Assembly: GCA_032249735.1 (NCBI GenBank)
Contig: JAVVHA010000001.1
Location: 70,041 to 134,040 of the forward strand
Reading direction: 5' to 3'
DNA from: Dehalococcoidia bacterium
GTDB lineage: Bacteria > Chloroflexota > Dehalococcoidia > SM23-28-2 > HRBIN24
DNA: 64,000 bases
Within the stretch, counting starts at the first letter, position 1. Every line of letters starts with the position of its first letter. A program made the position numbers and the translations under genes. The notes under the pieces are model-generated. The model saw only the letters and a program-made list of their open reading frames with translations. It was not told the DNA's origin and made no database searches. This document shows positions 6,916 through 43,783 of the stretch, one piece after another.

Positions 6916-7959
6916 ATGTCCTCTCTGCGCGAGCTGGAGGAGATAGAGTCCCAGGCCCGCTCAGCGCTGCTGGCGGCTGAGGATGAGGCCCAGCTGGACG
7001 CTTGGTGGCAGGCCTTCTTGGGGCGTAAGGGCCGCTTGACGCAGGTGCTGCGGGGGCTAGCCTCTCTGCCGTTGGAGGAGCGACGCCTGCTGGGATCCCA
7101 CGCTAACCGCCTCAAAGAGGAGTTGCAAGCGGCCTATCAAGAACGGCGGCAGCGCTTGCAGGAGGAGTCGCTGGCCCGCGCCCTGGCCGCCAGCCGGGTG
7201 GACGTCAGCCTGCCAGGCCGGCCCCTGCCCGTGGGGCGTTTGCACCCCATCACCCAGACCCTGAGGGATGTGCTGGATTGCTTCCGCTCCCTAGGCTTCC
7301 AGGTGGTGGAGGGGCCGGAGGTGGAGTGGGATTACTACAACTTCGAGGCCCTCCTCATTCCCAAGGACCACCCGGCACGGGACCTGTGGGCTACCCTGTG
7401 GATAGACTATCGGCGCAATGGCGAGATGCCTATGCTCTTGCGCACCCATACTAGCCCCAATCAGATACGGTATATGGAGACCCACTCGCCCCCCATCCGC
7501 ATCGTCTCCCCCGGCAAGTGTTATCGGTATGAGGCCACCGACCCCACCCACGAATGGATGCTCACCCAGGTGGAGGTGCTGGCCGTGGACGAGGGCCTGG
7601 GCATGGCCGACCTGAAGGGCACTCTGGCCGAGTTCGCACGCCGCATCTTCGGGCCCGAGCGTCGCGTCCGCTTCCGCTGCGAGTACTATCCCTTCGTGGA
7701 GCCGGGGATGGACGTGCTCATCGACTGTTTCCAGTGCGGCGGTGTTGGGTGTCGCATCTGTGGCCATACGGGCTGGCTGGAGATCCTGGGCTCTGGTATG
7801 GTTCACCCCCAGATCCTGGCCAACGTGGGCTACGACCCGGAGCGGTACACCGGTTTCGCTGCCGGCCTGGGCATCGAGCGCATCGCTATGATCCGTTACG
7901 GCATCGACGATATCCGCCTCTTCTACCAGAACGACCTCCGCTTCCTCGAGCAGTTTTAG
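6916..7959 (+). CDS. pheS: Phenylalanine--tRNA ligase alpha subunit
   Basis: It has a class II aaRS core (FRCEYYPFVEPGMDV, GWLEILGSGMVHP). The start was chosen at an internal ATG (MSSLRELEEIE) to give the usual ~347 aa. The ORF track's upstream extension from 6811 is probably non-coding. Confidence 0.88.
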   Translation: MSSLRELEEIESQARSALLAAEDEAQLDAWWQAFLGRKGRLTQVLRGLASLPLEERRLLGSHANRLKEELQAAYQERRQRLQEESLARALAASRVDVSLPGRPLPVGRLHPITQTLRDVLDCFRSLGFQVVEGPEVEWDYYNFEALLIPKDHPARDLWATLWIDYRRNGEMPMLLRTHTSPNQIRYMETHSPPIRIVSPGKCYRYEATDPTHEWMLTQVEVLAVDEGLGMADLKGTLAEFARRIFGPERRVRFRCEYYPFVEPGMDVLIDCFQCGGVGCRICGHTGWLEILGSGMVHPQILANVGYDPERYTGFAAGLGIERIAMIRYGIDDIRLFYQNDLRFLEQF

Positions 7960-26763: not shown

Positions 26764-27605
26764 AGATGCAAGGCACAGGTAACGATTTCCTGCTCCTGGA
26801 GGCCCAGGGCGATGACCATGACTGGCCAGCCCTGGCCCGCGCCATGTGCCACCGTCATCTGGGAGTGGGAGCCGATGGCCTTCTCCTGGTCATGCCCTCC
26901 CAAGAGGCCCAAGTGCGCATGCGCATCTTCAACCCCGACGGCTCCGAGGCGGAGATGTGCGGCAACGGCGTCCGTTGCTTGGCCCGCTATGCCTTAGACC
27001 GGGGCCTGGCCCAGCTCCAGGACGGGGCCATCGTGGTGGAGACCATGGCCGGGCTTGTCACCGTCTGGCCGACAGGCGAGGGCATGCGGGTGGGCATGGG
27101 GATTCCCCGTCTGCGACCTGAGGAGGTGCCAGTGGCAGTGGAGATGGACCCACCTCTGCTGGATGTGCCCCTCGCCGCTGCCGGCCGTCAGCTGCACCTC
27201 GCTTGCCTCTCCATGGGGAATCCTCATGCTGTCCTCCTGGTGGAAGAGCCTGTGGAGGACTTCCCGTTGGCGGAGGTGGGCCCACAGGTAGAGCACCACC
27301 CCCTCTTCCCCCAGCGGGTAAACCTGGAGGTGGCCCGTGTGAGGGATCGTCACCACATGGACGTGCGGGTATGGGAACGGGGGGTGGGGGAGACCCTCTC
27401 CTGCGGCACTGGGGCCACCGCCGCCGTGGTGGCTGCCCACCTCCGCGGCCTGGTGGACCACAAGGTGGAAGTGCGCTTGCCCGGCGGCCTTCTCTGGGTG
27501 GAATGGGACGGCAGGGGAGAGGCATATCTGGCCGGCCCAGTGGATTATATTTGTGAGGGGTACTGGCTAGGATCCTCGTTCCCTAAGGCTGGTGGAAGGA
27601 GGTAG
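26751..27605 (+). CDS. dapF: Diaminopimelate epimerase
   Basis: It has the MQGTGNDF N-terminus and both catalytic Cys regions (CGNG, CGTG). Confidence 0.9.
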   Translation: MRFVKMQGTGNDFLLLEAQGDDHDWPALARAMCHRHLGVGADGLLLVMPSQEAQVRMRIFNPDGSEAEMCGNGVRCLARYALDRGLAQLQDGAIVVETMAGLVTVWPTGEGMRVGMGIPRLRPEEVPVAVEMDPPLLDVPLAAAGRQLHLACLSMGNPHAVLLVEEPVEDFPLAEVGPQVEHHPLFPQRVNLEVARVRDRHHMDVRVWERGVGETLSCGTGATAAVVAAHLRGLVDHKVEVRLPGGLLWVEWDGRGEAYLAGPVDYICEGYWLGSSFPKAGGRR

Positions 27606-27608
27606 GAC

Positions 27609-27980
27609 ATGGTCAGGCTCATCTACTGCCTGCGGCGCAAGGAGGGCATGTCCCTCCAGGAGTTCCAGCGATACTGGCGCGAAGTGCATGGCCCCTTGGT
27701 GGAGAAACACGCCCAGGCCCTGCGCATCCGCCGCTACATTCAGGTCCACACGCTCGACACCCCCTTCAACCAAGCCTTGGGCCGCCAGCGGGGCTGCCAG
27801 GTGGAGCCGTACGACGGCGTGGCCGAGCTGTGGTGGGACAGCCTGGATGACTTCCAGGCCGCTGTCCAGACGGAAGAAGGTAGGGAGGCCGCTCGCCAAC
27901 TGGCCGAGGACGAGGCCCGCTTTATAGACGTGGCCCGCTCCACCATATTCCTCGCCCAGGAGAACGCCGTCATCCCCTGA
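27609..27980 (+). CDS. EthD-family / dimeric alpha-beta barrel protein (tentative)
   Basis: 123 aa. The N-terminal pattern [30 protein letters not shown] is typical of EthD-like proteins. It sits between dapF and dapL. Confidence 0.45.
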
Positions 27981-27981
27981 G

Positions 27982-29163
27982 GTGACAGAGGTGAGGCTTT
28001 CTCAGCGCCTAGAAAAGCTACCTCCTTACCTCTTCGTGGAGATAAGCCGCAAGATCGCCGAGAAGCGGGCCCAGGGTGTCAGGGTTATCTCCTTCGCCAT
28101 TGGCGACCCTGATATCCCGACGCCTCCTCACATCATAGAGGCGCTGCGGGAGGCGGCCTTGGACCCCTCTAACCATCGGTATCCTGAGACGGAGGGGCTG
28201 CCGGAGCTGCGGCGGGCTATTGCTGCCTGGTACCGCAGGCGCTTCGGTGTGGACCTGAACCCCGAGGAGGAGGTCTTGCCCCTCATCGGCTCCAAAGAGG
28301 GCATCGGGCATGTGGCCCTCTGCCTCATCGACCCTGGGGACGTGGCCCTGGTGCCGGACCCCGCCTATCCCGTCTATGCCATGGGCACTGTCATAGCCGG
28401 TGGCCAGCCTTATTATCTCCCCTTACGAGAGGAGAACGATTTCCTGCCCGACCTCACCCAGGTGCCGGAGGAGGTGGCCCGGCGGGCTAAAGTCCTCTGG
28501 ATCAACTATCCCAACAACCCCACAGGGGCAGTGGCCGACCTGGCCTTCTTCCGGGAAGTGGTGGCCTTCGCCCGTCGCTACGACCTGGTCGTCTGTCACG
28601 ACGCCCCTTATACGGAGGTGGCCTTCGACGGCTATCGGCCCCCTAGCTTCTTAGAGGTGCCCGGGGCCAAGGAAGTGGGCATCGAGTTCCACTCCTTCAG
28701 CAAGTCCTACAACATGACGGGTTGGCGCATCGGGATGGCGGTGGGTAACGCCCGCCTCATCCGGGCGCTGCGGGACGTCAAGTCCAACCTAGACTCTGGC
28801 ATTCCACAGGCCATCCAGAGGATGGCCATCGCTGCCCTGGAGGGGCCCCAGGAGTGCATCGAGGAACATAACCGCATCTACCGGGCGCGGCGGGACCGGC
28901 TGGTGGAGGCCTTGCGGCGGTTGGGGTTGCGGGTGCGGCCTAGCCTCGCCTCCTTATACCTATGGGCGCGGGTCCCTGAGGGGGAGACGTCGGTGGGATT
29001 TGCCGAGCGGTTGTTGGAGGAGGCGGCAGTGGTGGTCACCCCGGGGGTGGGCTACGGGCCCAGTGGCGAGGGCTACGTCCGCCTCTCCCTCACCATCCCC
29101 GATGATGACCTAGAGGAGGGGTTGAGGCGGCTAGAGGCCCTAGTTCGCGGCCGCACGCCCTGA
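27982..29163 (+). CDS. dapL: LL-diaminopimelate aminotransferase (DapL-type class I aminotransferase)
   Basis: It has the PLP-lysine region [14 protein letters not shown], the LPPYLF N-terminal motif and a length of ~393 aa. It is adjacent to dapF. Confidence 0.75.
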
Positions 29164-29273
29164 AAGAGCTGGGCCCCCTCGCCAGGGTATACTAGAAGGT
29201 GAGGACAGGAGGCAGGTAAGAGGCCATCGCCAGAGGGACCTACGAGACAGCTCGGCCACCTGAACGGGCTCTA

Positions 29274-30407
29274 TTGGTGGGTGTGGCCCTTAAGCGCCCC
29301 CGCCAACCTGGGATTCTCGATGTGGAAAGCTCGTTAGAGGAATTGGCCCTTCTGGCCCATACGGCTGGCGCCCGGGTGGTGGGCAAAGTCTTCCAGAAGC
29401 TAGACACCCCTAACCCCACCTATTACATCGGCCCTGGCAAACTGCAGGAGATCGCCTCCCTGCGTCCCTCCCTGCAGTACAGCATGGTCATCTTCGACGA
29501 CGAGCTGACTCCTAGCCAGCAGAGGAACCTGGAGCGGGCCCTAGGGGTGAAGGTCATCGACCGCACAGCCCTCATCTTGGACATCTTCGCCCAGCATGCC
29601 CGCACGCGGGAGGGCCGGCTGCAGGTGGAGCTGGCCCAGCACCAGTACCTCCTGCCTCGCTTGCGAGGTCAATGGCCGCACTTAGAGCGGCTGGGCGGCG
29701 GCATCGGCACCCGTGGCCCGGGGGAGACGCAGCTGGAGATGGACCGCCGCCTGGTGAAGCGCCGTATCCAGCAGCTAGAGCGGGAGCTGGCGAAGGTGCG
29801 GCAGCACCGGGCCCTCTACCGACGCCGGCGGAGCCGCGAAGGGCTGCCGGTGGTATCTCTGGTGGGCTATACCAATGCCGGCAAGAGCACCATTATGCGT
29901 GCCCTCTCAGGGGCGGACGTGGTGGTGGCTGACCAGCTCTTCGCCACCCTCGACCCCCTCACCCGGCGTGTCCGCCTGCCAGGTGGTGGCTGGTTCCTTC
30001 TGACTGACACGGTGGGGTTCATCAACAAGCTTCCTCCCCAGGTGGTGGCCGCCTTCCGCGCTACCCTCGAGGAGCTGGCGGAGGCCGACCTCCTCCTCCA
30101 CGTCATCGACATTACCCATCCTAACGCTGCTGAGCAGGCGGAGACGGTGGAGAGGACGCTGGCCGAGCTAGGCCTGGCCGCCAAGCCTCGCATCGCCGTC
30201 CTCAATAAGGTGGACCGTCTCATGGGGGGCGACGGTAGGGCCGTGTGGAACGAGGACGAGGTACACCAGCTCCTGCCCTATGTGCGACAGTGGCAGCCTC
30301 GGGCGGTGCTAGTCTCGGCGTTGAGGCGCTGGGGCCTGGACGAGCTCTTGCGCCAGATCGAGGAGGCCTTGGCCCAGGTGCGCCAGGAGAAGGCCAAGAC
30401 GGCCTAG
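29274..30407 (+). CDS. hflX: GTPase HflX
   Basis: It has the HflX N-domain, the G1 motif GYTNAGKST and DTVGF. Confidence 0.88.
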   Translation: MVGVALKRPRQPGILDVESSLEELALLAHTAGARVVGKVFQKLDTPNPTYYIGPGKLQEIASLRPSLQYSMVIFDDELTPSQQRNLERALGVKVIDRTALILDIFAQHARTREGRLQVELAQHQYLLPRLRGQWPHLERLGGGIGTRGPGETQLEMDRRLVKRRIQQLERELAKVRQHRALYRRRRSREGLPVVSLVGYTNAGKSTIMRALSGADVVVADQLFATLDPLTRRVRLPGGGWFLLTDTVGFINKLPPQVVAAFRATLEELAEADLLLHVIDITHPNAAEQAETVERTLAELGLAAKPRIAVLNKVDRLMGGDGRAVWNEDEVHQLLPYVRQWQPRAVLVSALRRWGLDELLRQIEEALAQVRQEKAKTA

Positions 30408-30748
30408 GTTAGCTCCACCCACTTATCGGCCCAGCGCTGAATGGCCTCCACCACCTCCTGCAGCTCCCTTCCCTTCCTGGTCAACTCATAGTGGACCAGC
30501 AGAGGGGTGACGGAGACCACCTTCTTGCGCACGATGTCCTCCGCCTCTAGCTCCTTAAGGCGCTGGGAGAGGAGCCGATCGCTGATGTTGCCGATGTAGT
30601 CACGGATCTCGGAGAACCGCCGCGGCCCCTTCATGAGGGCGCGGATGACCAGGGGCGTCCACCTCTTGCCCAATACGCGGGCCGCCCGCGCGTATCGTGG
30701 GCAAGGATATTCTAGCTGTATAGGTTGCCGCCGTGCCTTCATCTCCAC
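30404..30748 (-). CDS. HxlR-family transcriptional regulator
   Basis: 114 aa with a winged HTH (LGKRWTPLVIRALMKGPRRFSEI). It is divergent from a DoxX gene, which is the classic arrangement. Confidence 0.8.
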   Translation of the reverse strand: MEMKARRQPIQLEYPCPRYARAARVLGKRWTPLVIRALMKGPRRFSEIRDYIGNISDRLLSQRLKELEAEDIVRKKVVSVTPLLVHYELTRKGRELQEVVEAIQRWADKWVELT

Positions 30749-30852
30749 TAAATTGTAGCTACATCTCTCCGCCTCGGCAAGGGAGGTTGCTTCATCTCTA
30801 CTGGTTTGTTATGTTATTGCATGAGCTAGCAAATCAAAAGAGGAGGTCTGCC

Positions 30853-31269
30853 ATGGACGGAGTCCTCTTGGCGGGGCGCATTCTCACTGCCATCCTGTTC
30901 GTCCTCAGTGGCATAAATCACTTTGCGCAGCGACAGGCTATGAGCCAGTATACGGCCCACATGGGTGTGCCCATGGCCGAGCTGGCGGTGTTGGGCTCCG
31001 GCGCCTACATAGTGGCTGTGGGGCTGCTTTATGCCCTGGGAGTTTGGCCAGACCTGATGGCCCTTCTCTTGGCCGCCTTCTTAGTGCCGGTGGCTCTCAT
31101 CATGCACCGCTTCTGGGCCATCTCAGACCCCGCAATGAGGGCCACCCAGATGGCCCACTTCCTTAAGAACATCGCCTTAGCGGGTGCAGCTCTGGTGGCC
31201 TTTGCTTTCTTTCAGCAGTTCGGGACGGAGGTGGGGTTGACCATCACCGATCCTTTGTTCGGGGGCTAA
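30853..31269 (+). CDS. DoxX-family membrane protein
   Basis: The start was chosen at a GAGGAGG-preceded ATG (MDGVLLAGRILTAILFVLSG). It has 4 TM helices and is ~138 aa. Confidence 0.75.
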   Translation: MDGVLLAGRILTAILFVLSGINHFAQRQAMSQYTAHMGVPMAELAVLGSGAYIVAVGLLYALGVWPDLMALLLAAFLVPVALIMHRFWAISDPAMRATQMAHFLKNIALAGAALVAFAFFQQFGTEVGLTITDPLFGG

Positions 31270-31333
31270 TTATCGACGCGTCAGCCCAGTGTCTGTCGAT
31301 GGTCTAACCATCATCGATCCCTTGTTGGGGGGG
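31235..31333 (+). repeat. Degenerate direct repeat of the DoxX gene 3' end (~31 bp, ~84% identity), copies 35 bp apart
   Basis: Copy 1 is GGTTGACCATCACCGATCCTTTGTTCGGGGGC (31235-31266, encodes LTITDPLFGG*). Copy 2 is GGTCTAACCATCATCGATCCCTTGTTGGGGGGG (31301-31333, would encode LTIIDPLLGG). Confidence 0.7.
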
Positions 31334-31768
31334 CATAGTGCTCACGGGGCATCTCCTCTAGGGTTTCCTTGACCTGGTCAAAGCCCTTGAGGCGCCTCTC
31401 CTCCCATCTCCCCTCCTGCCTCTCGGCCTCCAGCTAAAGGAGCTCGGCGCAATCGAGTATGCCTTGAGCCTCATAGGGGAGCACACGTCTGCCACCTGCG
31501 CTCCCCCACGAGGCGATTAGAGAATTGATAGACGCGAAAGGGGGTGAAATACGCTTGACCCCTTGCCTCAGGGCTTGCAGCTAGACGCGTTCGCGTCAAT
31601 CGAACCAAGCTGAGGTTGAAAGCCGTGCTCGCAGCACCACCCCCTCGTTGTGAGAAGCGCCTCAGGGGAGGAGAGTTAAAGTGGGAGCAGGGTTCGGGGG
31701 GCGACATCTGCGGCCCTCTCAATGGCTGAAGGCCAGGGCAGGGGCTAGCCTCCAGCCTCGCCGCGCCC

Positions 31769-32191
31769 CTAGGATGGCTGATATCTGCCCACCGAGAACG
31801 CCAGGATCATGGGTATGTCAACGGCACCCACCGCCAGCGTCGCGATGAGAAAGGCGAGCTGGCGAGCCGGCAGCTCGTTATAGACGAACACGAACATCAG
31901 CAGCGCGGCGATGAGCCCGTAAGCCACGAGGGTCCAGCCGCCCACCGTGAAGAAGGGGCGCCAGGCGAAGTCGCGGGCCCGGGCCAGCGCGACGACGTTG
32001 ACCACCACAGCCGCCGCGGCAACGCTCAGCAGGCCGATAGCAGGCGCAAGGGGCGGCTCATTGGGCAGCGAGGCGGAGAGGTAGCTCACCCCCGAGATGG
32101 CGAGCCCCAGGGCCAACGCCCCTACCAAAGCTACCGGTGGCAGCTTTCGTTCCGGGCCGACGTCCCCTGCCGTCCGCCCGACCTCGCTCAT
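31769..32191 (-). CDS. Hypothetical polytopic membrane protein (140 aa)
   Basis: It has ~4 hydrophobic helices. Its start overlaps the stop of the upstream membrane protein by ATGA. Confidence 0.5.
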   Translation of the reverse strand: MSEVGRTAGDVGPERKLPPVALVGALALGLAISGVSYLSASLPNEPPLAPAIGLLSVAAAAVVVNVVALARARDFAWRPFFTVGGWTLVAYGLIAALLMFVFVYNELPARQLAFLIATLAVGAVDIPMILAFSVGRYQPS

Positions 32192-32802
32192 GACGCCAGC
32201 CTCGCCATGATGATCAGCGTCGCCACCTGCATGACCCCGAGGACGCCTGCACTGTACACGAACCGTCGCATTAGCCGCTCGATGAGCTCCCCGTTCGGCT
32301 CAGGCTTGCGCATCTCAAACAGCACCGCTAGATTGGTTGGCTCGTTCACTCCCAGGGCGACCATCGTCATTACACCCACGACGGCGAACGACGCCAACAC
32401 CCACGCGTGGTGCGGATGAGCGGAGTAGATGGTGCCCAGCTTGACAGCGAGCTGGAAGCCCGCCACCAGCGTGACGGTGACTACCGTCGGCATGATCAGG
32501 GACATCTGGGGCATGAGACGGGAGGTGAGCTCAAGCCTCGCCTGCATCGACATCCGCCCCAAAAGGGGGCCAATCACCAGGCCGAAGAACAGGTCGATGA
32601 TGGTCCATGCCGCCCCGAAGGCCACGTGAGCGAACTCGAGGGCCCATAGCCAGCCGCCCACAACCGCGGTGAGGAGGAAAGCCAGCGCCACCCCAACGAA
32701 CGGCAACCCGGCTAGTGGCACAATGGTGCGGGGCGGTCGTGCCAGTTCCCAAACGGCATGACCCGGCGGGATCGCAGCTGGCTCGGGCGTAGCATCTGTC
32801 AT
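32188..32802 (-). CDS. Hypothetical polytopic membrane protein (204 aa)
   Basis: It has ~5 hydrophobic helices and is first in a two-gene operon. A clean sigma70-like promoter lies directly upstream. Confidence 0.5.
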   Translation of the reverse strand: MTDATPEPAAIPPGHAVWELARPPRTIVPLAGLPFVGVALAFLLTAVVGGWLWALEFAHVAFGAAWTIIDLFFGLVIGPLLGRMSMQARLELTSRLMPQMSLIMPTVVTVTLVAGFQLAVKLGTIYSAHPHHAWVLASFAVVGVMTMVALGVNEPTNLAVLFEMRKPEPNGELIERLMRRFVYSAGVLGVMQVATLIIMARLAS

Positions 32803-32817
32803 GATAGTATTGACGGT

Positions 32818-32846
32818 ATGTTACGACTGATAGCGGACCTTGTCAA
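32818..32846 (-). promoter_or_regulatory. Candidate sigma70-type promoter TTGACA-17-TAACAT for the membrane-protein operon
   Basis: On the minus strand the sequence reads TTGACAaggtccgctatcagtcgTAACAT, and the -10 element ends 15 nt before the ATG at 32802. No SD is visible, so the transcript may be near-leaderless. The region is AT-rich and flanked by a TTGAC...GTCAA inverted repeat. Confidence 0.35.
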
Positions 32847-32901
32847 TAAGTAGCGAGACTGTTTCTTTGTTCAAGTGACCTGAGGTGGCGTCTGCGGAGG
32901 C

Positions 32902-33447
32902 TTAGTCCCCCAGGAGGGTGGTGTAGCCGAGGGCGATGACCTCTTCCACGTACTGGGAACGCCAGCCAGGGTTGGGTATGCGATAGCCGTGTTCCCGGAA
33001 CCAGCGGTGGAGCTTAAGGTACTGTTCCTCAAGATAGCGTCGCCAGGAGTCCTCCTCGCTGAAGAGCTCCGGATCCACCTCCTCCAGCCTTTTGTCCGCC
33101 TCCTCGGGGTCGATGTCCAGGTCCTCTTTCCAGTATTCGGCTAGGTACTCCAGGGACTCCTCCAGCTGGCGCCGGCATTCCTCCAGGATGGCCACCATCA
33201 TGCCGTGCTTGTCCACCTTGCGCCCGCGCAGGCGGACGTCCTTGGCGCATTCGGCGCACAGGGTCACCAGCTTACGGGCCTCACAGTACTCGTCTTTGCG
33301 ACATCCTTCACATAACGGGGCCCAATGGGCCGCCTCGGGCGCCCGCAAATACCCGACATAGATCTCGTCGGCGAGGGCGCCACACCTGGGGCAGCTGACC
33401 TTCTCGGCTAATATCTCGTTAATGGCCCGCTGCCAGTCGATATGCAT
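32902..33447 (-). CDS. Hypothetical Cys-rich protein (zinc-ribbon-like N-terminus, acidic helical C-terminus)
   Basis: 181 aa. The N-terminal 75 aa contain four CxxC pairs (CPRC, CEGC, CAEC) plus single Cys residues. The C-terminal half is acidic with predicted helices. Confidence 0.5.
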   Translation of the reverse strand: MHIDWQRAINEILAEKVSCPRCGALADEIYVGYLRAPEAAHWAPLCEGCRKDEYCEARKLVTLCAECAKDVRLRGRKVDKHGMMVAILEECRRQLEESLEYLAEYWKEDLDIDPEEADKRLEEVDPELFSEEDSWRRYLEEQYLKLHRWFREHGYRIPNPGWRSQYVEEVIALGYTTLLGD

Positions 33448-33508
33448 AGCTCCTCATTCATAATACCATGGGCGTATCATCGCCCTGTCAACCGCCGCCT
33501 TTTGCCCG

Positions 33509-34936
33509 CTAGCCCTTTGGGGCGTCCAAGGTGGGCCAGTGGTGGGCCCAAGGGCGGGCTTGCTCGTAGGCGTAGGCTGCCTGCAGCACCAGGTCCTCGC
33601 GCAACCTGGGCCCGACGATCTGGAGGCCCACTGGCAGGCCGGCATCGGTGAAACCGGCGCGGACGGTGGCCGCAGGGTGGCCCGTGAAGTTGAAGGGATA
33701 GGTGAAGGGGATGTACGCCATAGGGTTCTCCACCGGCTGGCCGGCTATCTCCATGCTGAGACGCCCATGGGCATCTATGGCCTCTGTGGCCGTGGTGGGG
33801 GTGAGGAGCAGGTGGTACCTCTCAAATAGGTGCCAGAGACGGTTGACCCACTCAGCCCGCAGTCGCTGGGCCCAGGCGTACCGCTCCACGTTCACCTCCA
33901 AGGCCCTCTCGGTCATGGCCAGGAAGCCGCGGCCGAACTCATGCCTGTGTTGCGGGAGCTTATCGGCGATGCGGGCCCACGTCTCACCAGCCTCCACCGT
34001 GGCCCACGCAGCGGCTGGGTCGGGGAAGGTCTCCTCCAGCTCCTCTACCTCCCACCCCAGCGACTGAAAGACACGGGCCGCTGCCTCCGCCTCCCGCAAC
34101 ACGTCGGGCTGAACCCTCGCATAACCCAGGGTGGGGCTCCAGGCCACCCGCAGCCGAGGCAACGGCCGCTCCAGACACTCGACATAAGAAATGCCTGGGT
34201 GAGGCAGGGACTTGGGGTCTGCCGGGTGGTCGCCCACCACACAGTCCAGATATAGGGCGGCATCGCGCACGGTGCGGGTGATGGGGCCATAGCAGACCAT
34301 ATCGCCCCATGGGAGCATATCGGTGGGGCCTAAAGGTATGCGGCCGAACTGGGGCTTGATGCCGAAGCAGCCGGTGTAGGCAGCGGGGATGCGGATGGAG
34401 CCTCCGGCGTCCGAGGCGGTAGCCAGGGGCACCATCCCTGCAGCGATGGCCGCTGCCGCGCCGCCGCTGGAGCCCCCGGGGGTCCTCTCCAGATTCCAGG
34501 GGTTACGGGTGGCGCCGAAGAGGAGGTTGCGGCAGAAGAAGGTATAGCCGAACTCGGGGACGTTGGTCTTCCCCACCACTATGGCCCCAGCCCTCTTGAG
34601 CCGCTCCACCTGCACTGAGTCCCTGGAAGGCCAGTTGTCCTTAAAGGGGACGGAACCATAGGTGGTAGGGAGCCCCGCGGCATCCTCCAAGTCCTTTACG
34701 CCGAGGGGAAGGCCGGCCAAAGGCCCCACCTCCTCCCCCCGGGCTATGCGCTCGGCCATCTGGCGCGCCTCTTGCAGCGCCTCCTCCGCCCTGAGACTTA
34801 CAAAGGCGTTAATCACCGGGTTCACTTCCTGGATGTGCCGCAGACACGCCTCCATAAGCTCCACTGGCGAAAGCTCCTTCCGCCGGACAAGGGAAGCCAG
34901 CTCATAGGCGGACATGAAGTTAAGGTCCTGGGCCAT
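33509..34936 (-). CDS. Amidase-signature family amidase
   Basis: It has the GGSSGG amidase signature ([16 protein letters not shown]), a catalytic Ser in GGSIRIP and Lys in LGVKD. Confidence 0.85.
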
Positions 34937-35447
34937 GGCGTCCTCCTTGACATAACTCCTCAGAATACCATCCTGACTGTCCCGGGGCCTCCTCCACCCC
35001 TACGGCCAGGCGGCGCAAGGGGAGGTGAGGTGGCAACGAGGCCTTCAGCTCCCAGGTCAGCCACTGGGCTAACCTCTCGGCGGTGGTATTGTCGATGGGG
35101 AGGGGGAGGCAGTCCTCCTTGGGCAAGAGGTACTGGCGGCCCCCGACCTGAAGGCGATAGGCGTCACCCGTCTCCTCCACCTGCAGGAGTGGGCTTCCCA
35201 TGGGCAACAGGAACCGGTGATGAAGACGGCGACAGAGGGCAGCAGCCAAGCCCCGTAGCTGGCGGAAGTCCATGACCCACCCCTCAGGCGCCAGGTCCCC
35301 CCATACCTCCACCACCAGGCGGTAGTTGTGGCCATGCAGGGGTTCCACCTCCTGGGGCGATACGGTGAAGTGGGCAGCGGCAAACCACAGCTCCGCCCCC
35401 TCTACCACCACCCTAAAGGCAGGGCCATTATACTTCGCACTATGCAC
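34920..35447 (-). CDS. 6-pyruvoyl-tetrahydropterin synthase-like protein (QueD/PTPS family)
   Basis: AAHFTVSP ... PLHGHNY is a canonical PTPS motif. It overlaps the downstream amidase by 17 nt. Confidence 0.7.
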   Translation of the reverse strand: MHSAKYNGPAFRVVVEGAELWFAAAHFTVSPQEVEPLHGHNYRLVVEVWGDLAPEGWVMDFRQLRGLAAALCRRLHHRFLLPMGSPLLQVEETGDAYRLQVGGRQYLLPKEDCLPLPIDNTTAERLAQWLTWELKASLPPHLPLRRLAVGVEEAPGQSGWYSEELCQGGRHGPGP

Positions 35448-35535
35448 CTTATGTCTCTTCCTCCGTGCGCATGCCCGGCGCCGCTGGTGAGCGCCGGGGG
35501 CTATTACCGTGTGGCAACATCTTAAGGGTGGCCAC

Positions 35536-35595
35536 GGGCCGGGGTCAATATGGGCATCTGCTTGACAAGGTGGCGGCCCCGGCCTATTTTTTCTC
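35536..35595 (+). terminator. Terminator-like hairpin plus U-tract inside the 5' leader of the DUF4389-like gene (possible attenuator)
   Basis: GGGCCGGGG pairs with CCCCGGCC across a ~30-nt loop, followed by TATTTTTTCTCC on the + strand. It is ~70 nt upstream of the start codon. Two TTGACA hexamers lie nearby. Confidence 0.3.
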
Positions 35596-35667
35596 CAGTG
35601 CCAGTGGTTGACAAATGGCTACCCTCTTATGCCCAAGGTGCCATAACGAGAAAGAGGAGGGGGCGAA

Positions 35668-36246
35668 ATGAGCGGTGCTGGCCAAGCCTATCCGTTGGTG
35701 TTCGATGTGGAATACCCCGAGCGCCTGTCACGCCTGCTCATCTTTGTCAAGTGGCTCCTGGCCCTGCCCCACTGGATCATCCTCTATGGCCTAGGGGTGC
35801 TAGTGGGGGCCATCACCTTCGTGGCCTGGTTTGCCATCCTGTTCACAGGCCGCTATCCCAGGGAACTTTTCGACCTAGTGGTGAAATCCTGGCGGTGGCA
35901 GGCCAACGTCGCTGCCTACGTGGGCCTGATGCGCGATGAGTATCCGCCCTTCTCCTGGGAGGAGGGGCGCTACCCGGTCAGGTTCCAGGTGGAGTATCCA
36001 GAGCGGCTCTCACGGCTCCTCATCTTTGTCAAGTGGCTCCTGGCCCTGCCCCACTATATTGTCCTCTTCCTCTTAGGGCTGGTGGCCTATCTGGCGTGGA
36101 TTGTGGCCTGGTGGGCCATCCTCATCACAGGCCGCTTCCCACGGGCCCTTTTCGACTTCCTGGTGGGGCTAGGGCGCTGGAACTGGCGTGTGCAGGCCTA
36201 CACCAACCTGCTGCGCGACGAATATCCCCCCTTTAGCCTGCGCTGA
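35668..36246 (+). CDS. DUF4389-like membrane protein with internal tandem duplication (tentative family assignment)
   Basis: It has two ~90-aa repeats, each with EYPERLSRLLIFVKWLLALPH[WY]I and two TM helices. An identical 35-bp DNA segment occurs in both halves. Confidence 0.55.
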   Translation: MSGAGQAYPLVFDVEYPERLSRLLIFVKWLLALPHWIILYGLGVLVGAITFVAWFAILFTGRYPRELFDLVVKSWRWQANVAAYVGLMRDEYPPFSWEEGRYPVRFQVEYPERLSRLLIFVKWLLALPHYIVLFLLGLVAYLAWIVAWWAILITGRFPRALFDFLVGLGRWNWRVQAYTNLLRDEYPPFSLR

Positions 36247-41403: not shown

Positions 41404-41865
41404 ATGCCCGAAAAAGAAGAGAAGACCATCACCTTCAACCGGAAGGCCCTGCACGACTATCACATCCTCAAGACCATGGAGGCGGGCATCGAGCTGAAGG
41501 GCACGGAGGTGAAGTCCATCCGCGACGGACGGGTGAACATCCGCGACGCCTATGTGCGTCCGGAGGGCGGGGAGATGTGGCTAGTGGGAGCCCACATCGC
41601 CCACTACCCCCCAGCGGGCCGCTTCCAACACGACCCATATCGTAAGCGCCGCCTCCTCCTCCACCGTAGGCAGATAAGGGAGCTGGTCCAGGCCCTGCGG
41701 GGCGAAGGGATGACCATCGTGCCTCTGCGCATCTACTTCCGCGGCGGGAGGGCCAAGGTGGAGATCGCCCTGGCCAAGGGCAAGCGGCAGTACGATAAGC
41801 GGGCGGCGCTGGCCCGGCGGGAAGCCGAGCGGCGCATGCGGGAGGCCCTGCGCCGCTTGGCCTAA
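41404..41865 (+). CDS. smpB: SsrA-binding protein
   Basis: The sequence FNRKALHDYHILKTMEAGIELKGTEVKSIRDGRVNIRDAYV is canonical SmpB. Confidence 0.92.
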   Translation: MPEKEEKTITFNRKALHDYHILKTMEAGIELKGTEVKSIRDGRVNIRDAYVRPEGGEMWLVGAHIAHYPPAGRFQHDPYRKRRLLLHRRQIRELVQALRGEGMTIVPLRIYFRGGRAKVEIALAKGKRQYDKRAALARREAERRMREALRRLA

Positions 41866-41886
41866 GGATGGTATAATACAAGGCGC

Positions 41887-42228
41887 GGGGACGAGTGGGT
41901 TCGACAGGGAAGGTCGGGCCCGGACAGCAGGCCGAGGTCGCCGCAGGCCTCGTTAAACAGGCGGCAAAAAGTAACTGGCGAGCGCGAGCTTGCCCTTGCC
42001 GCCTAAGGTTTAGGCGGCACGTCGCCCTGGCCTCCCCCCTGGGGGTCGGGAGCGGCGCCAGAGACCAGGGGTGCAGCCTCCTGGCGCCACCGAGGGGGGC
42101 CTAAGAGGAGGTGGCTGGCCCGTCGGCACGCAGCCGACGGCGGTACGGCGGGCGAGAAGTAAGCGTCGGCTATGCCTGTAGGTGGTCCGGGTGGGTCTTC
42201 GCCTGGACGAGGGGTTCGACTCCCCTCC
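41887..42228 (+). ncRNA. ssrA: tmRNA (SsrA), predicted tag ending GERELALAA
   Basis: The 5' GGGGACGAGUGGGUUCGACAGG pairs with the 3' CGUCUCCACCA acceptor. The T-arm is GGGGUUCGACUCCCC. The internal ORF reads ...GGC GAG CGC GAG CUU GCC CUU GCC GCC UAA. It is followed by a T8 run and lies immediately downstream of smpB. Confidence 0.85.
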
Positions 42229-42244
42229 GTCTCCACCATTTTTT

Positions 42245-43492: not shown

Positions 43493-43611
43493 GACATGCG
43501 TAAACCATGCTATCACGGCCCTTACCCTCCACCAACCCTTGACAGGCCTCCTGCGCCATGCTATATAGAAGGGCAAACCGAATATGGCGTCTCCCGGGTG
43601 CCCGCGAGGGC

Positions 43612-43745
43612 TTAATAGGGAAGTGGGGCTAGAAACCCCCGCGGCCGCGCCACTGTAGCAGGGAGCCCCGGCAGAGGCCACTGTCCCCGCAGGGATGGGA
43701 AGGCGCCGAGGGCGGTGAACTGCGAGCCAGGAGACCTGCCCGGGA
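43612..43745 (+). ncRNA. Cobalamin (AdoCbl) riboswitch
   Basis: It has AGGGAAG, GUGGGGCUAGAAACCCC, two GCCACUG motifs and a B12 box GAGCCAGGAGACCUGCC (43724-43740). It lies upstream of a btuFCD-like operon. Confidence 0.7.
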
Positions 43746-43783
43746 GAGGGGTTGCCCCCTCCTCGCGTCGGGGAGGGCACCCA

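Follow-up and report, generated by a model that had tools for sequence, protein, structure and literature searches.

The 3' end of the DoxX gene recurs, in diverged form, a few dozen bases downstream in the 64,000-nucleotide stretch of Dehalococcoidia DNA analysed here (hereafter the window), and the question that this locus raises is what kind of event wrote the second copy. A sequence-only reading had taken the pair for the scar of site-specific integration into a gene end. Here we report that comparison with relatives places a strain-specific insertion elsewhere than between the two copies, and we argue that the locus is probably an IS256-family insertion in the last DoxX codons, now dead, in which the second copy is a templated patch of the DoxX end.

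DoxX and its repeated end

The gene and the two copies of its end lie as follows.

30853–31269, plus strand: DoxX gene, 138 aa (Pfam PF07681, E 2.1e-10)
31233–31265, plus strand: copy 1 (J1), composed of GGGG, a 24-nt core TTGACCATCACCGATCCTTTGTTC (31237–31260) and GGGGG, the last being the insert's first bases
31301–31333, plus strand: copy 2 (J2), composed of GG, a 24-nt core TCTAACCATCATCGATCCCTTGTT (31303–31326) and GGGGGGG; apparent DoxX-end patch in the IS terminal repeat

That the DoxX end recurs nearby in diverged form was borne out: a repeat search aligned 31240–31265 (ACCATCACCGATCCTTTGTTCGGGGG) with 31307–31332 (ACCATCATCGATCCCTTGTTGGGGGG) at 23 of 26 positions (88%), with a start-to-start spacing of 67 and no such match expected by chance. 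Over a longer 30-nt span (31237–31266 against 31304–31333) 25 of 30 positions are identical (83%), and a degenerate 20-nt pattern searched with at most three mismatches has just two sites in the 64 kb, against 0.00 expected (100 shuffles). In place of the 35 bp of the sequence-only reading, 37 nt (31267–31303) separate the 30-nt copies as delimited here, and the second copy would encode LTIIDPLLGG as described there, when read in the +1 frame relative to DoxX. Along the DNA the order is copy 1, CTAA, about 34 nt, copy 2 and CATAG, and G-runs bracket the core at both places, as GGGG-core-GGGGG in DoxX and the tip of the insert and as GG-core-GGGGGGG in the split run discussed below. A 67-nt tandem duplication was ruled out, as the sequences beyond the two copies are unrelated. 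The repeat locus matches in seven independent assemblies, with 0–5 mismatches per 0.9–1.8 kb, and no intact gene is present in 31270–31768.

The GLTxTDPLF motif is kept across the DoxX family, P134, L135 and F136 being invariant in an alignment of 17 sequences. Searching the genomes of GTDB species with the DoxX protein gave identities of at most 53% and no closer relative. Compared with a sister species (30853–31260 against contig L025), DoxX is 87% identical at the DNA level and HflX, HxlR and a neighbouring 181-aa gene are 91–92% identical; within the species (against contig L043), 6 of 407 nt differ in DoxX and 1 of 546 in the 181-aa gene. The divergent intergenic region between HxlR and DoxX carries, at 30737–30809, 20-nt direct repeats (CTTCATCTCCACTAAATTGT and CTTCATCTCTACTGGTTTGT) set 53 nt apart, which are probably operator or promoter repeats.

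Empty sites and the boundaries of the insert

Relatives were found by way of DoxX homologues and their contigs, and by scanning metagenomes with the 181-aa protein encoded next door. A 258-kb JGI contig of the same species (L043) has the empty site: it aligns to 27293–31259 (99.29%) and to 32865–35773 (99.14%), the two BLAST blocks share 7 nt, and the window is longer by a net 1612 bp, so that the window carries a 1604-bp insert flanked by an 8-bp repeat.

31253–31260, no strand assigned: left 8-bp direct repeat CTTTGTTC, target-site-duplication-like, at the overlap of the empty-site alignment blocks
31261–32864, minus strand: insert of 1604 bp, strain-specific, IS256-family-derived, with two passenger genes; absent from L043 and from sister-species contigs L025–L028/L044
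32865–32872, plus strand: right 8-bp direct repeat CTTTGTTC, followed at 32873–32878 by the native DoxX tail AAG TGA, collinear with the empty sites of L043 and L025

The sister species, whose DoxX is 88% identical, is also empty at this site, its DoxX ending in ...CCTTGTTCAAGTGA and the stop of the convergent 181-aa gene lying 23 nt past that end. In L043 and the sister species alike DoxX ends ...CTTTGTT(T/C)AAGTGA, 23 nt ahead of the 181-aa gene, the ending in L043 being TTGTTTAAGTGA. Empty alleles carry a single copy of CTTTGTTC, and its 8 bp fit the 8–9-bp target-site duplication of the IS256 family; at the last position of the repeat L043 has T, not C. The AAG TGA tail and the ancestral 23-nt spacer are now at 32873–32901, before the 181-aa gene. 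The insert was found in at least 10 contigs, each time at the DoxX site.

Copy 1 matches the empty-site allele letter for letter up to 31259, and DoxX is native up to 31260; its last three codons, GGG GGC TAA (31261–31269), come from the insert, whose first nine bases, GGGGGCTAA, form the present end of the gene. The protein thus ends in ...DPLFGG*, against ...DPLFK* in the empty allele. Being bounded by the 8-bp repeat, the element runs 1.6 kb rightward of copy 1, and copy 2 lies within it, starting 41 nt from its left end.

Among more distant relatives (L029, L030 and L045–L055), the interval from HflX to the 181-aa gene is a hot spot of gene content. Variants include HxlR-DoxX with or without an FMN reductase gene, which overlaps the DoxX end by 8 nt, and DoxX is missing from L046–L050 and L054. 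Since these distant relatives have the FMN reductase gene between DoxX and the 181-aa gene, a remnant of it was sought in the non-coding stretch of the window, where tblastn gave no match. Four sister-species contigs (L025–L028) end about 300 bp past the 181-aa gene (about 7013–7283), where this species has an amidase gene; their final ORF resembles a transposase C-terminus (…YRLRGVVEGVFGALK…) and has no Pfam match.

A transposase remnant and its terminal repeat

The part of the insert nearest DoxX, and its far end, are divided as follows.

31261–31300, minus strand: outer terminal inverted repeat (IRR), holding the last transposase codons ...RQTLG*; the tip begins GG
31323–31541, minus strand: transposase gene 3'-end remnant, IS256 family (Transposase_mut), with one in-frame stop; located by tblastn
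31542–31707, no strand assigned: non-coding stretch without assignment; no tblastx, blastn or Rfam match
32803–32864, minus strand: right end of the insert, 62 nt, with a promoter-like TTGACA-17-TAACAT from 32846 to 32818 (scan score 10/12)

Codon-position GC on the minus strand at 31314–31433 is coding-like (0.70/0.42/0.75). An exhaustive HMMER (phmmer) search with a 40-aa fragment returned 22 matches, 21 of them transposase-fragment-like proteins at 57–71% identity, and one of these (P0256) matches PF00872 (Transposase_mut) at E 2.5e-47. By tblastn the remnant aligned over 42 aa at 60–71% identity, with E down to 7e-17, and a longer match of 75 aa (E 1.4e-10) covers 31541–31323. The remnant itself has no direct match in Pfam, only a C-terminal piece being present and the catalytic part absent, and a word-indexed protein search with the 40-aa fragment returned nothing, though the exhaustive search did match. 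Full-length relatives on Thermus thermophilus plasmids are annotated as "IS256 family transposase" or "IS256-like element ISTth4 family transposase", and a further close relative in the plasmid collection is on a Hydrogenophilus thermoluteolus plasmid. The unusually long non-coding stretch that had been pointed out beside the repeat holds no intact gene, as that reading had it; based on the HMMER and tblastn matches, these plasmid relatives and the IS256 traits described below, it is best described as a decayed IS256-family transposase 3' end with its terminal repeat.

The unassigned 31542–31707 has diverged by 2.5% between occupied strains, as other intergenic DNA has, and is possibly more decayed transposase sequence. 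A structured RNA was rejected for the non-coding stretch (fold z-score -0.52, no Rfam family), and no terminator-like site was predicted in 31270–31768. A patchwork of local DNA was rejected as well: when the stretch was compared by blastn and tblastx with the remaining window and with the loci fetched by then from outside the species, only noise came back. Four Logan contigs from three runs (L022, L033, L128, L130) break at 31404–31422, the most conserved part of the remnant, which suggests that other related IS copies are present in those communities.

The characteristic compared at the ends was the pair of imperfect inverted repeats, about 24–41 bp, that IS256 elements carry at both ends. 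Five reference IS copies end ...TATGCCCCCC GTACACAGAC...CACGACC (tip), with an unbroken C6/G6 run that abuts the final transposase codons and the terminal repeat; in the window the same run is split and DoxX-like sequence lies within it. MAFFT places one 32-nt gap relative to the window in all five references. When copy 2 (31301–31326) is removed, the left end aligns to the Thermus IRR with a local score of 41, reached by none of 3000 shuffles; with copy 2 kept, the score is 22, reached by 103 of 3000. Removal of 27–30 nt also restores a ...EHYAP(P)RQTLG* ending, against ...ERYAPRTQTLTHKS* in the family, with a small gain at the protein level (+7 BLOSUM units), so that it is the DNA-level alignment that carries the claim. 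As judged from these alignments, copy 2 interrupts the element's terminal repeat, as an apparent patch of about 26–32 nt beginning 41 nt from the tip. The outermost 8–12 nt of the left end are unlike the Thermus tips.

The right end may be the other IS end. It has no significant similarity to the Thermus IRLs and is not recognisable as an IS256 terminal repeat, and the one inverted match between left and right ends (11 of 13, with a 6–7-nt offset) has a p of about 0.04–0.08. Another small rearrangement of an IS256-type end was seen in the ISTth4 copy on T. thermophilus plasmid pTF24b (L132, about 937–954), where the element's own left terminal repeat is partly duplicated in tandem, the partial copy TATGTGTAAGGGTCCGTG lying directly outside the IS tip.

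Passenger membrane-protein genes

The remainder of the insert consists of two genes.

31769–32191, minus strand: p140, membrane protein; DNA homology to its 149-aa relatives runs on to 31708–31736
32188–32802, minus strand: p204, membrane protein of a very widespread family (3343 homologues)

Neither protein has a match in Pfam, NCBIfam or PDB. A p140-like gene is always found next to p204 homologues, in otherwise unrelated neighbourhoods, and DNA homology among such modules is limited to the two genes. Five other contexts share just these genes with the window (32804 to about 31708) and have no IS and no DoxX nearby, and a donor context for the module was not recovered from them. The exact p140 protein is known from the DoxX site only (10 contigs), and the unit did not turn up a second time. 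The TAG stop of p140 comes 8 codons ahead of the stop in the 149-aa homologues of L034 and L041 (window 31742–31771), and DNA homology to these goes on beyond it.

The p204-p140 module appears to fill the place of the lost part of the transposase and is predicted to be read from the promoter-like site in the right end. Since the insert reads towards DoxX with no predicted terminator between, an antisense effect on DoxX is possible. Between occupied strains p204 has diverged by 2.3% and the non-coding DNA by 2.5%, against 0.4–0.95% in the flanking genes.

Proposed origin of the second copy

The account that we consider probable, and prefer, is that an IS256-family element, of the kind with a Mutator-type DDE transposase, entered the last codons of DoxX and duplicated the 8-bp target CTTTGTTC. 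The DPLF end of the gene would have been kept, with the first bases of the element supplying GG and a stop, and the native AAGTGA tail would have moved 1.6 kb downstream. The element would be dead now, with about 75 recognisable C-terminal transposase codons and the adjacent terminal repeat left. We count the 8-bp direct repeat, which has the target-duplication length of the family, in favour of transposition; that route, the order of events and the template switch described next we infer from the arrangement of the locus, in which the empty sites, the 8-bp repeat, the transposase remnant and the break that copy 2 makes in the terminal repeat are observed.

On this account copy 2 would be a duplicate of the 24-nt core from the DoxX end, written into the G-run inside the terminal repeat. 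Because the references have nothing in this run, and the core is bracketed by G-runs in DoxX too, we read it as a templated patch, most likely made by a double template switch between G-runs. During replication or repair, a nascent strand at the internal G-run would anneal anew to the G-run preceding the DoxX core, extend through the core as far as the G-run of the tip and there switch back to the internal run. Homopolymer microhomology would then lie at both junctions, and the run would lengthen from 6 to 9 G, which is what the window has. For this model to hold, the element must have been sitting at a DoxX end at the time of patching.

The patch is not recent in appearance. Copy 2 has C, as does the sister-species DoxX, at two sites where DoxX of this species has T, together with about four further changes, so that an older DoxX allele seems to have been its template, with decay afterwards. 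It differs from copy 1 at 6–7 of about 27–33 positions, and the flanks of occupied and empty alleles have diverged by about 1%, which argues either for an old event followed by precise loss of the insert, or for a patch made elsewhere. Possibly the element is old and L043 lost the insert precisely, possibly the insert was exchanged between strains, and possibly the patch was made in another lineage. Precise excision between 8-bp repeats is known for IS256, and the T at the last repeat base in L043 is not predicted by simple deletion between the repeats. Some strains of the species carry the insert and others have none, a polymorphism that later precise loss, or exchange among strains, could explain.

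Alternative explanations

Had an integrase island entered the 3' end of DoxX and collapsed to a few dozen bases, copies 1 and 2 would be its attL and attR, and a duplicated gene 3' end beside strain-specific DNA would be left, as is the case here. We nevertheless regard this as highly improbable. The inserted DNA is that from 31261 to 32864, where the empty sites place it in answer to the question of an island between the copies, and it is bounded by the 8-bp repeat and not by the copies; the DNA between them, which had been suggested to be a collapsed or deleted element, is IS256-type terminal repeat (31261–31300); and the native DoxX tail lies at 32873–32878, not past copy 2. The chosen ORFs of at least 90 aa in the 64-kb window contained no integrase, excisionase, recombinase or intact transposase by Pfam scan, encoding instead functions in aromatic amino-acid and purine synthesis, tRNA synthetases, MutS/MutL, ABC transporters, SmpB and others, and the degenerate 20-nt pattern gave no third site in the 64 kb, what there is of a third copy being the 8 bp and the displaced stop at 32865–32878. 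What stands of the proposed integration scar is the insertion of a mobile element at precisely the 3' end of DoxX, with copy 2 internal to it, and the suggestion of a tiny local duplication came near to the likely events, which would be a local templated patch and not a tandem duplication. A patched element might instead have gained copy 2 at the DoxX end of a diverged lineage and arrived here by transposition or by recombination in the flanks, which we think unlikely. Copy 2 matches the sister-species DoxX end at 22 of 26 positions and copy 1 at 23 of 26, five of its seven differences are at third codon positions, as in the divergence of coding DNA, and the insert has diverged more between occupied strains (2.3% and 2.5%) than its flanks (0.4–0.95%). 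For such an origin, however, an element would have had to insert a second time at the very same nucleotide, or the import would have had to cross over so near the junction that no foreign flank was left; going outward from the insert, the first mismatch to the empty allele is met 72 nt away on the left side, and on the right side at the final base of the repeat, with the following one 525 nt beyond, and no donor lineage is present among about 130 fetched loci.

Two further explanations concern the unit as a whole. The 1.6 kb might not have transposed and might be foreign DNA, with an IS remnant by p204-p140, joined by illegitimate recombination at an 8-bp microhomology. The missing significance of any IS terminal repeat at the right end, the left tip unlike the reference tips and the occurrence of the unit in one place only are consistent with such joining; however, a repeat of exactly target-duplication length with an IS end exactly at the boundary is what transposition predicts, and a linear fragment joined at two illegitimate junctions makes no flanking repeat by itself, and we think this explanation quite improbable. 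Transposition of the whole unit we infer from two features, the 8-bp repeat and the IS end at the boundary, and put no more strongly because the right end is not recognisable, the left tip differs and p140 is known at one site. It is also conceivable, though we doubt it considerably, that the unit can still be mobilised, as a non-autonomous IS256-family cassette with the module in place of the transposase, and that it would move in trans and be lost precisely. Were this so, copy 2 would record the entry of target-flank DNA into an IS terminal repeat, and the locus would attest to mobilisation and precise loss in an uncultivated thermophilic Chloroflexota population.

An integron gene cassette was rejected: there is no IntI, and the junctions GTTCGGG and GTTCAAG do not fit GTTRRRY. 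An attC site was rejected too, the 3' non-coding part being IS remnant. No island adjoins the tRNA-Val and tmRNA genes of the window. The tmRNA gene (tag GERELALAA) comes immediately after smpB (41404–42238), with no mobile DNA at the tmRNA 3' end. Also in the window, a cobalamin riboswitch (43579–43757, 103.7 bits) lies upstream of a periplasmic-binding-protein/ABC transporter cluster and overlaps the longest ORF call of an opposite-strand MFS gene, whose true start is probably further in.

Comparison with known systems

A duplicated gene end can mislead, in that a DDE-transposon insertion with a local templated patch may be taken for site-specific integration. The locus also defines a strain-variable site, at which two membrane-protein genes are present or absent beside the HxlR-DoxX pair, and documents an IS256/ISTth4-like element in a Chloroflexota genome. 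The closest relatives in the plasmid collection, on Thermus and Hydrogenophilus plasmids, hint at IS exchange among thermophiles.

IS256-family elements make 8-bp target duplications and have imperfect terminal repeats and copy-out/paste-in transposition (PMC7780238). Like ISTth4 of T. thermophilus, ISCth4 and IS256, the insert has a remnant homologous to Mutator-type transposases (PF00872, by way of P0256), an inner terminal repeat that overlaps the C-terminal transposase codons and aligns to the Thermus copies, an 8-bp flanking duplication and a tip beginning GG. Unlike them, it is without about two thirds of the transposase gene and carries two unrelated membrane-protein genes instead, its length being 1604 bp against 1258–1282 bp in the Thermus copies; its second terminal repeat is not recognisable, and the surviving one has the target patch of roughly 26–32 nt.

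Mobile insertion cassettes and other passenger-carrying IS derivatives, such as MIC231 of the IS231 group, share with the insert passenger genes without a transposase, a target duplication and presence or absence between strains, and differ from it in that the insert has no recognised second IS end and one known location. Integrase islands in gene 3' ends likewise sit in the last codons, rebuild the end of the gene and displace the native end to the far junction; here, in contrast, the junction repeat is 8 bp, there is no integrase, and the 30-nt copy 2 is internal and has no role at the boundary.

Template switching or slippage at short repeats produces templated insertions, a class of microhomology-mediated replication error. 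Copy 2 resembles them as a short nearby sequence that was apparently copied, with both junctions in homopolymer runs, and is unlike them in that the template would be the flank of a transposable element and the recipient the terminal repeat of the same element, in an event reconstructed from its product. The locus is thus a known kind of element, an IS256-family insertion present as a dead, cargo-carrying derivative that is polymorphic within the species, with one small oddity, a patch of target flank apparently written into the terminal repeat.
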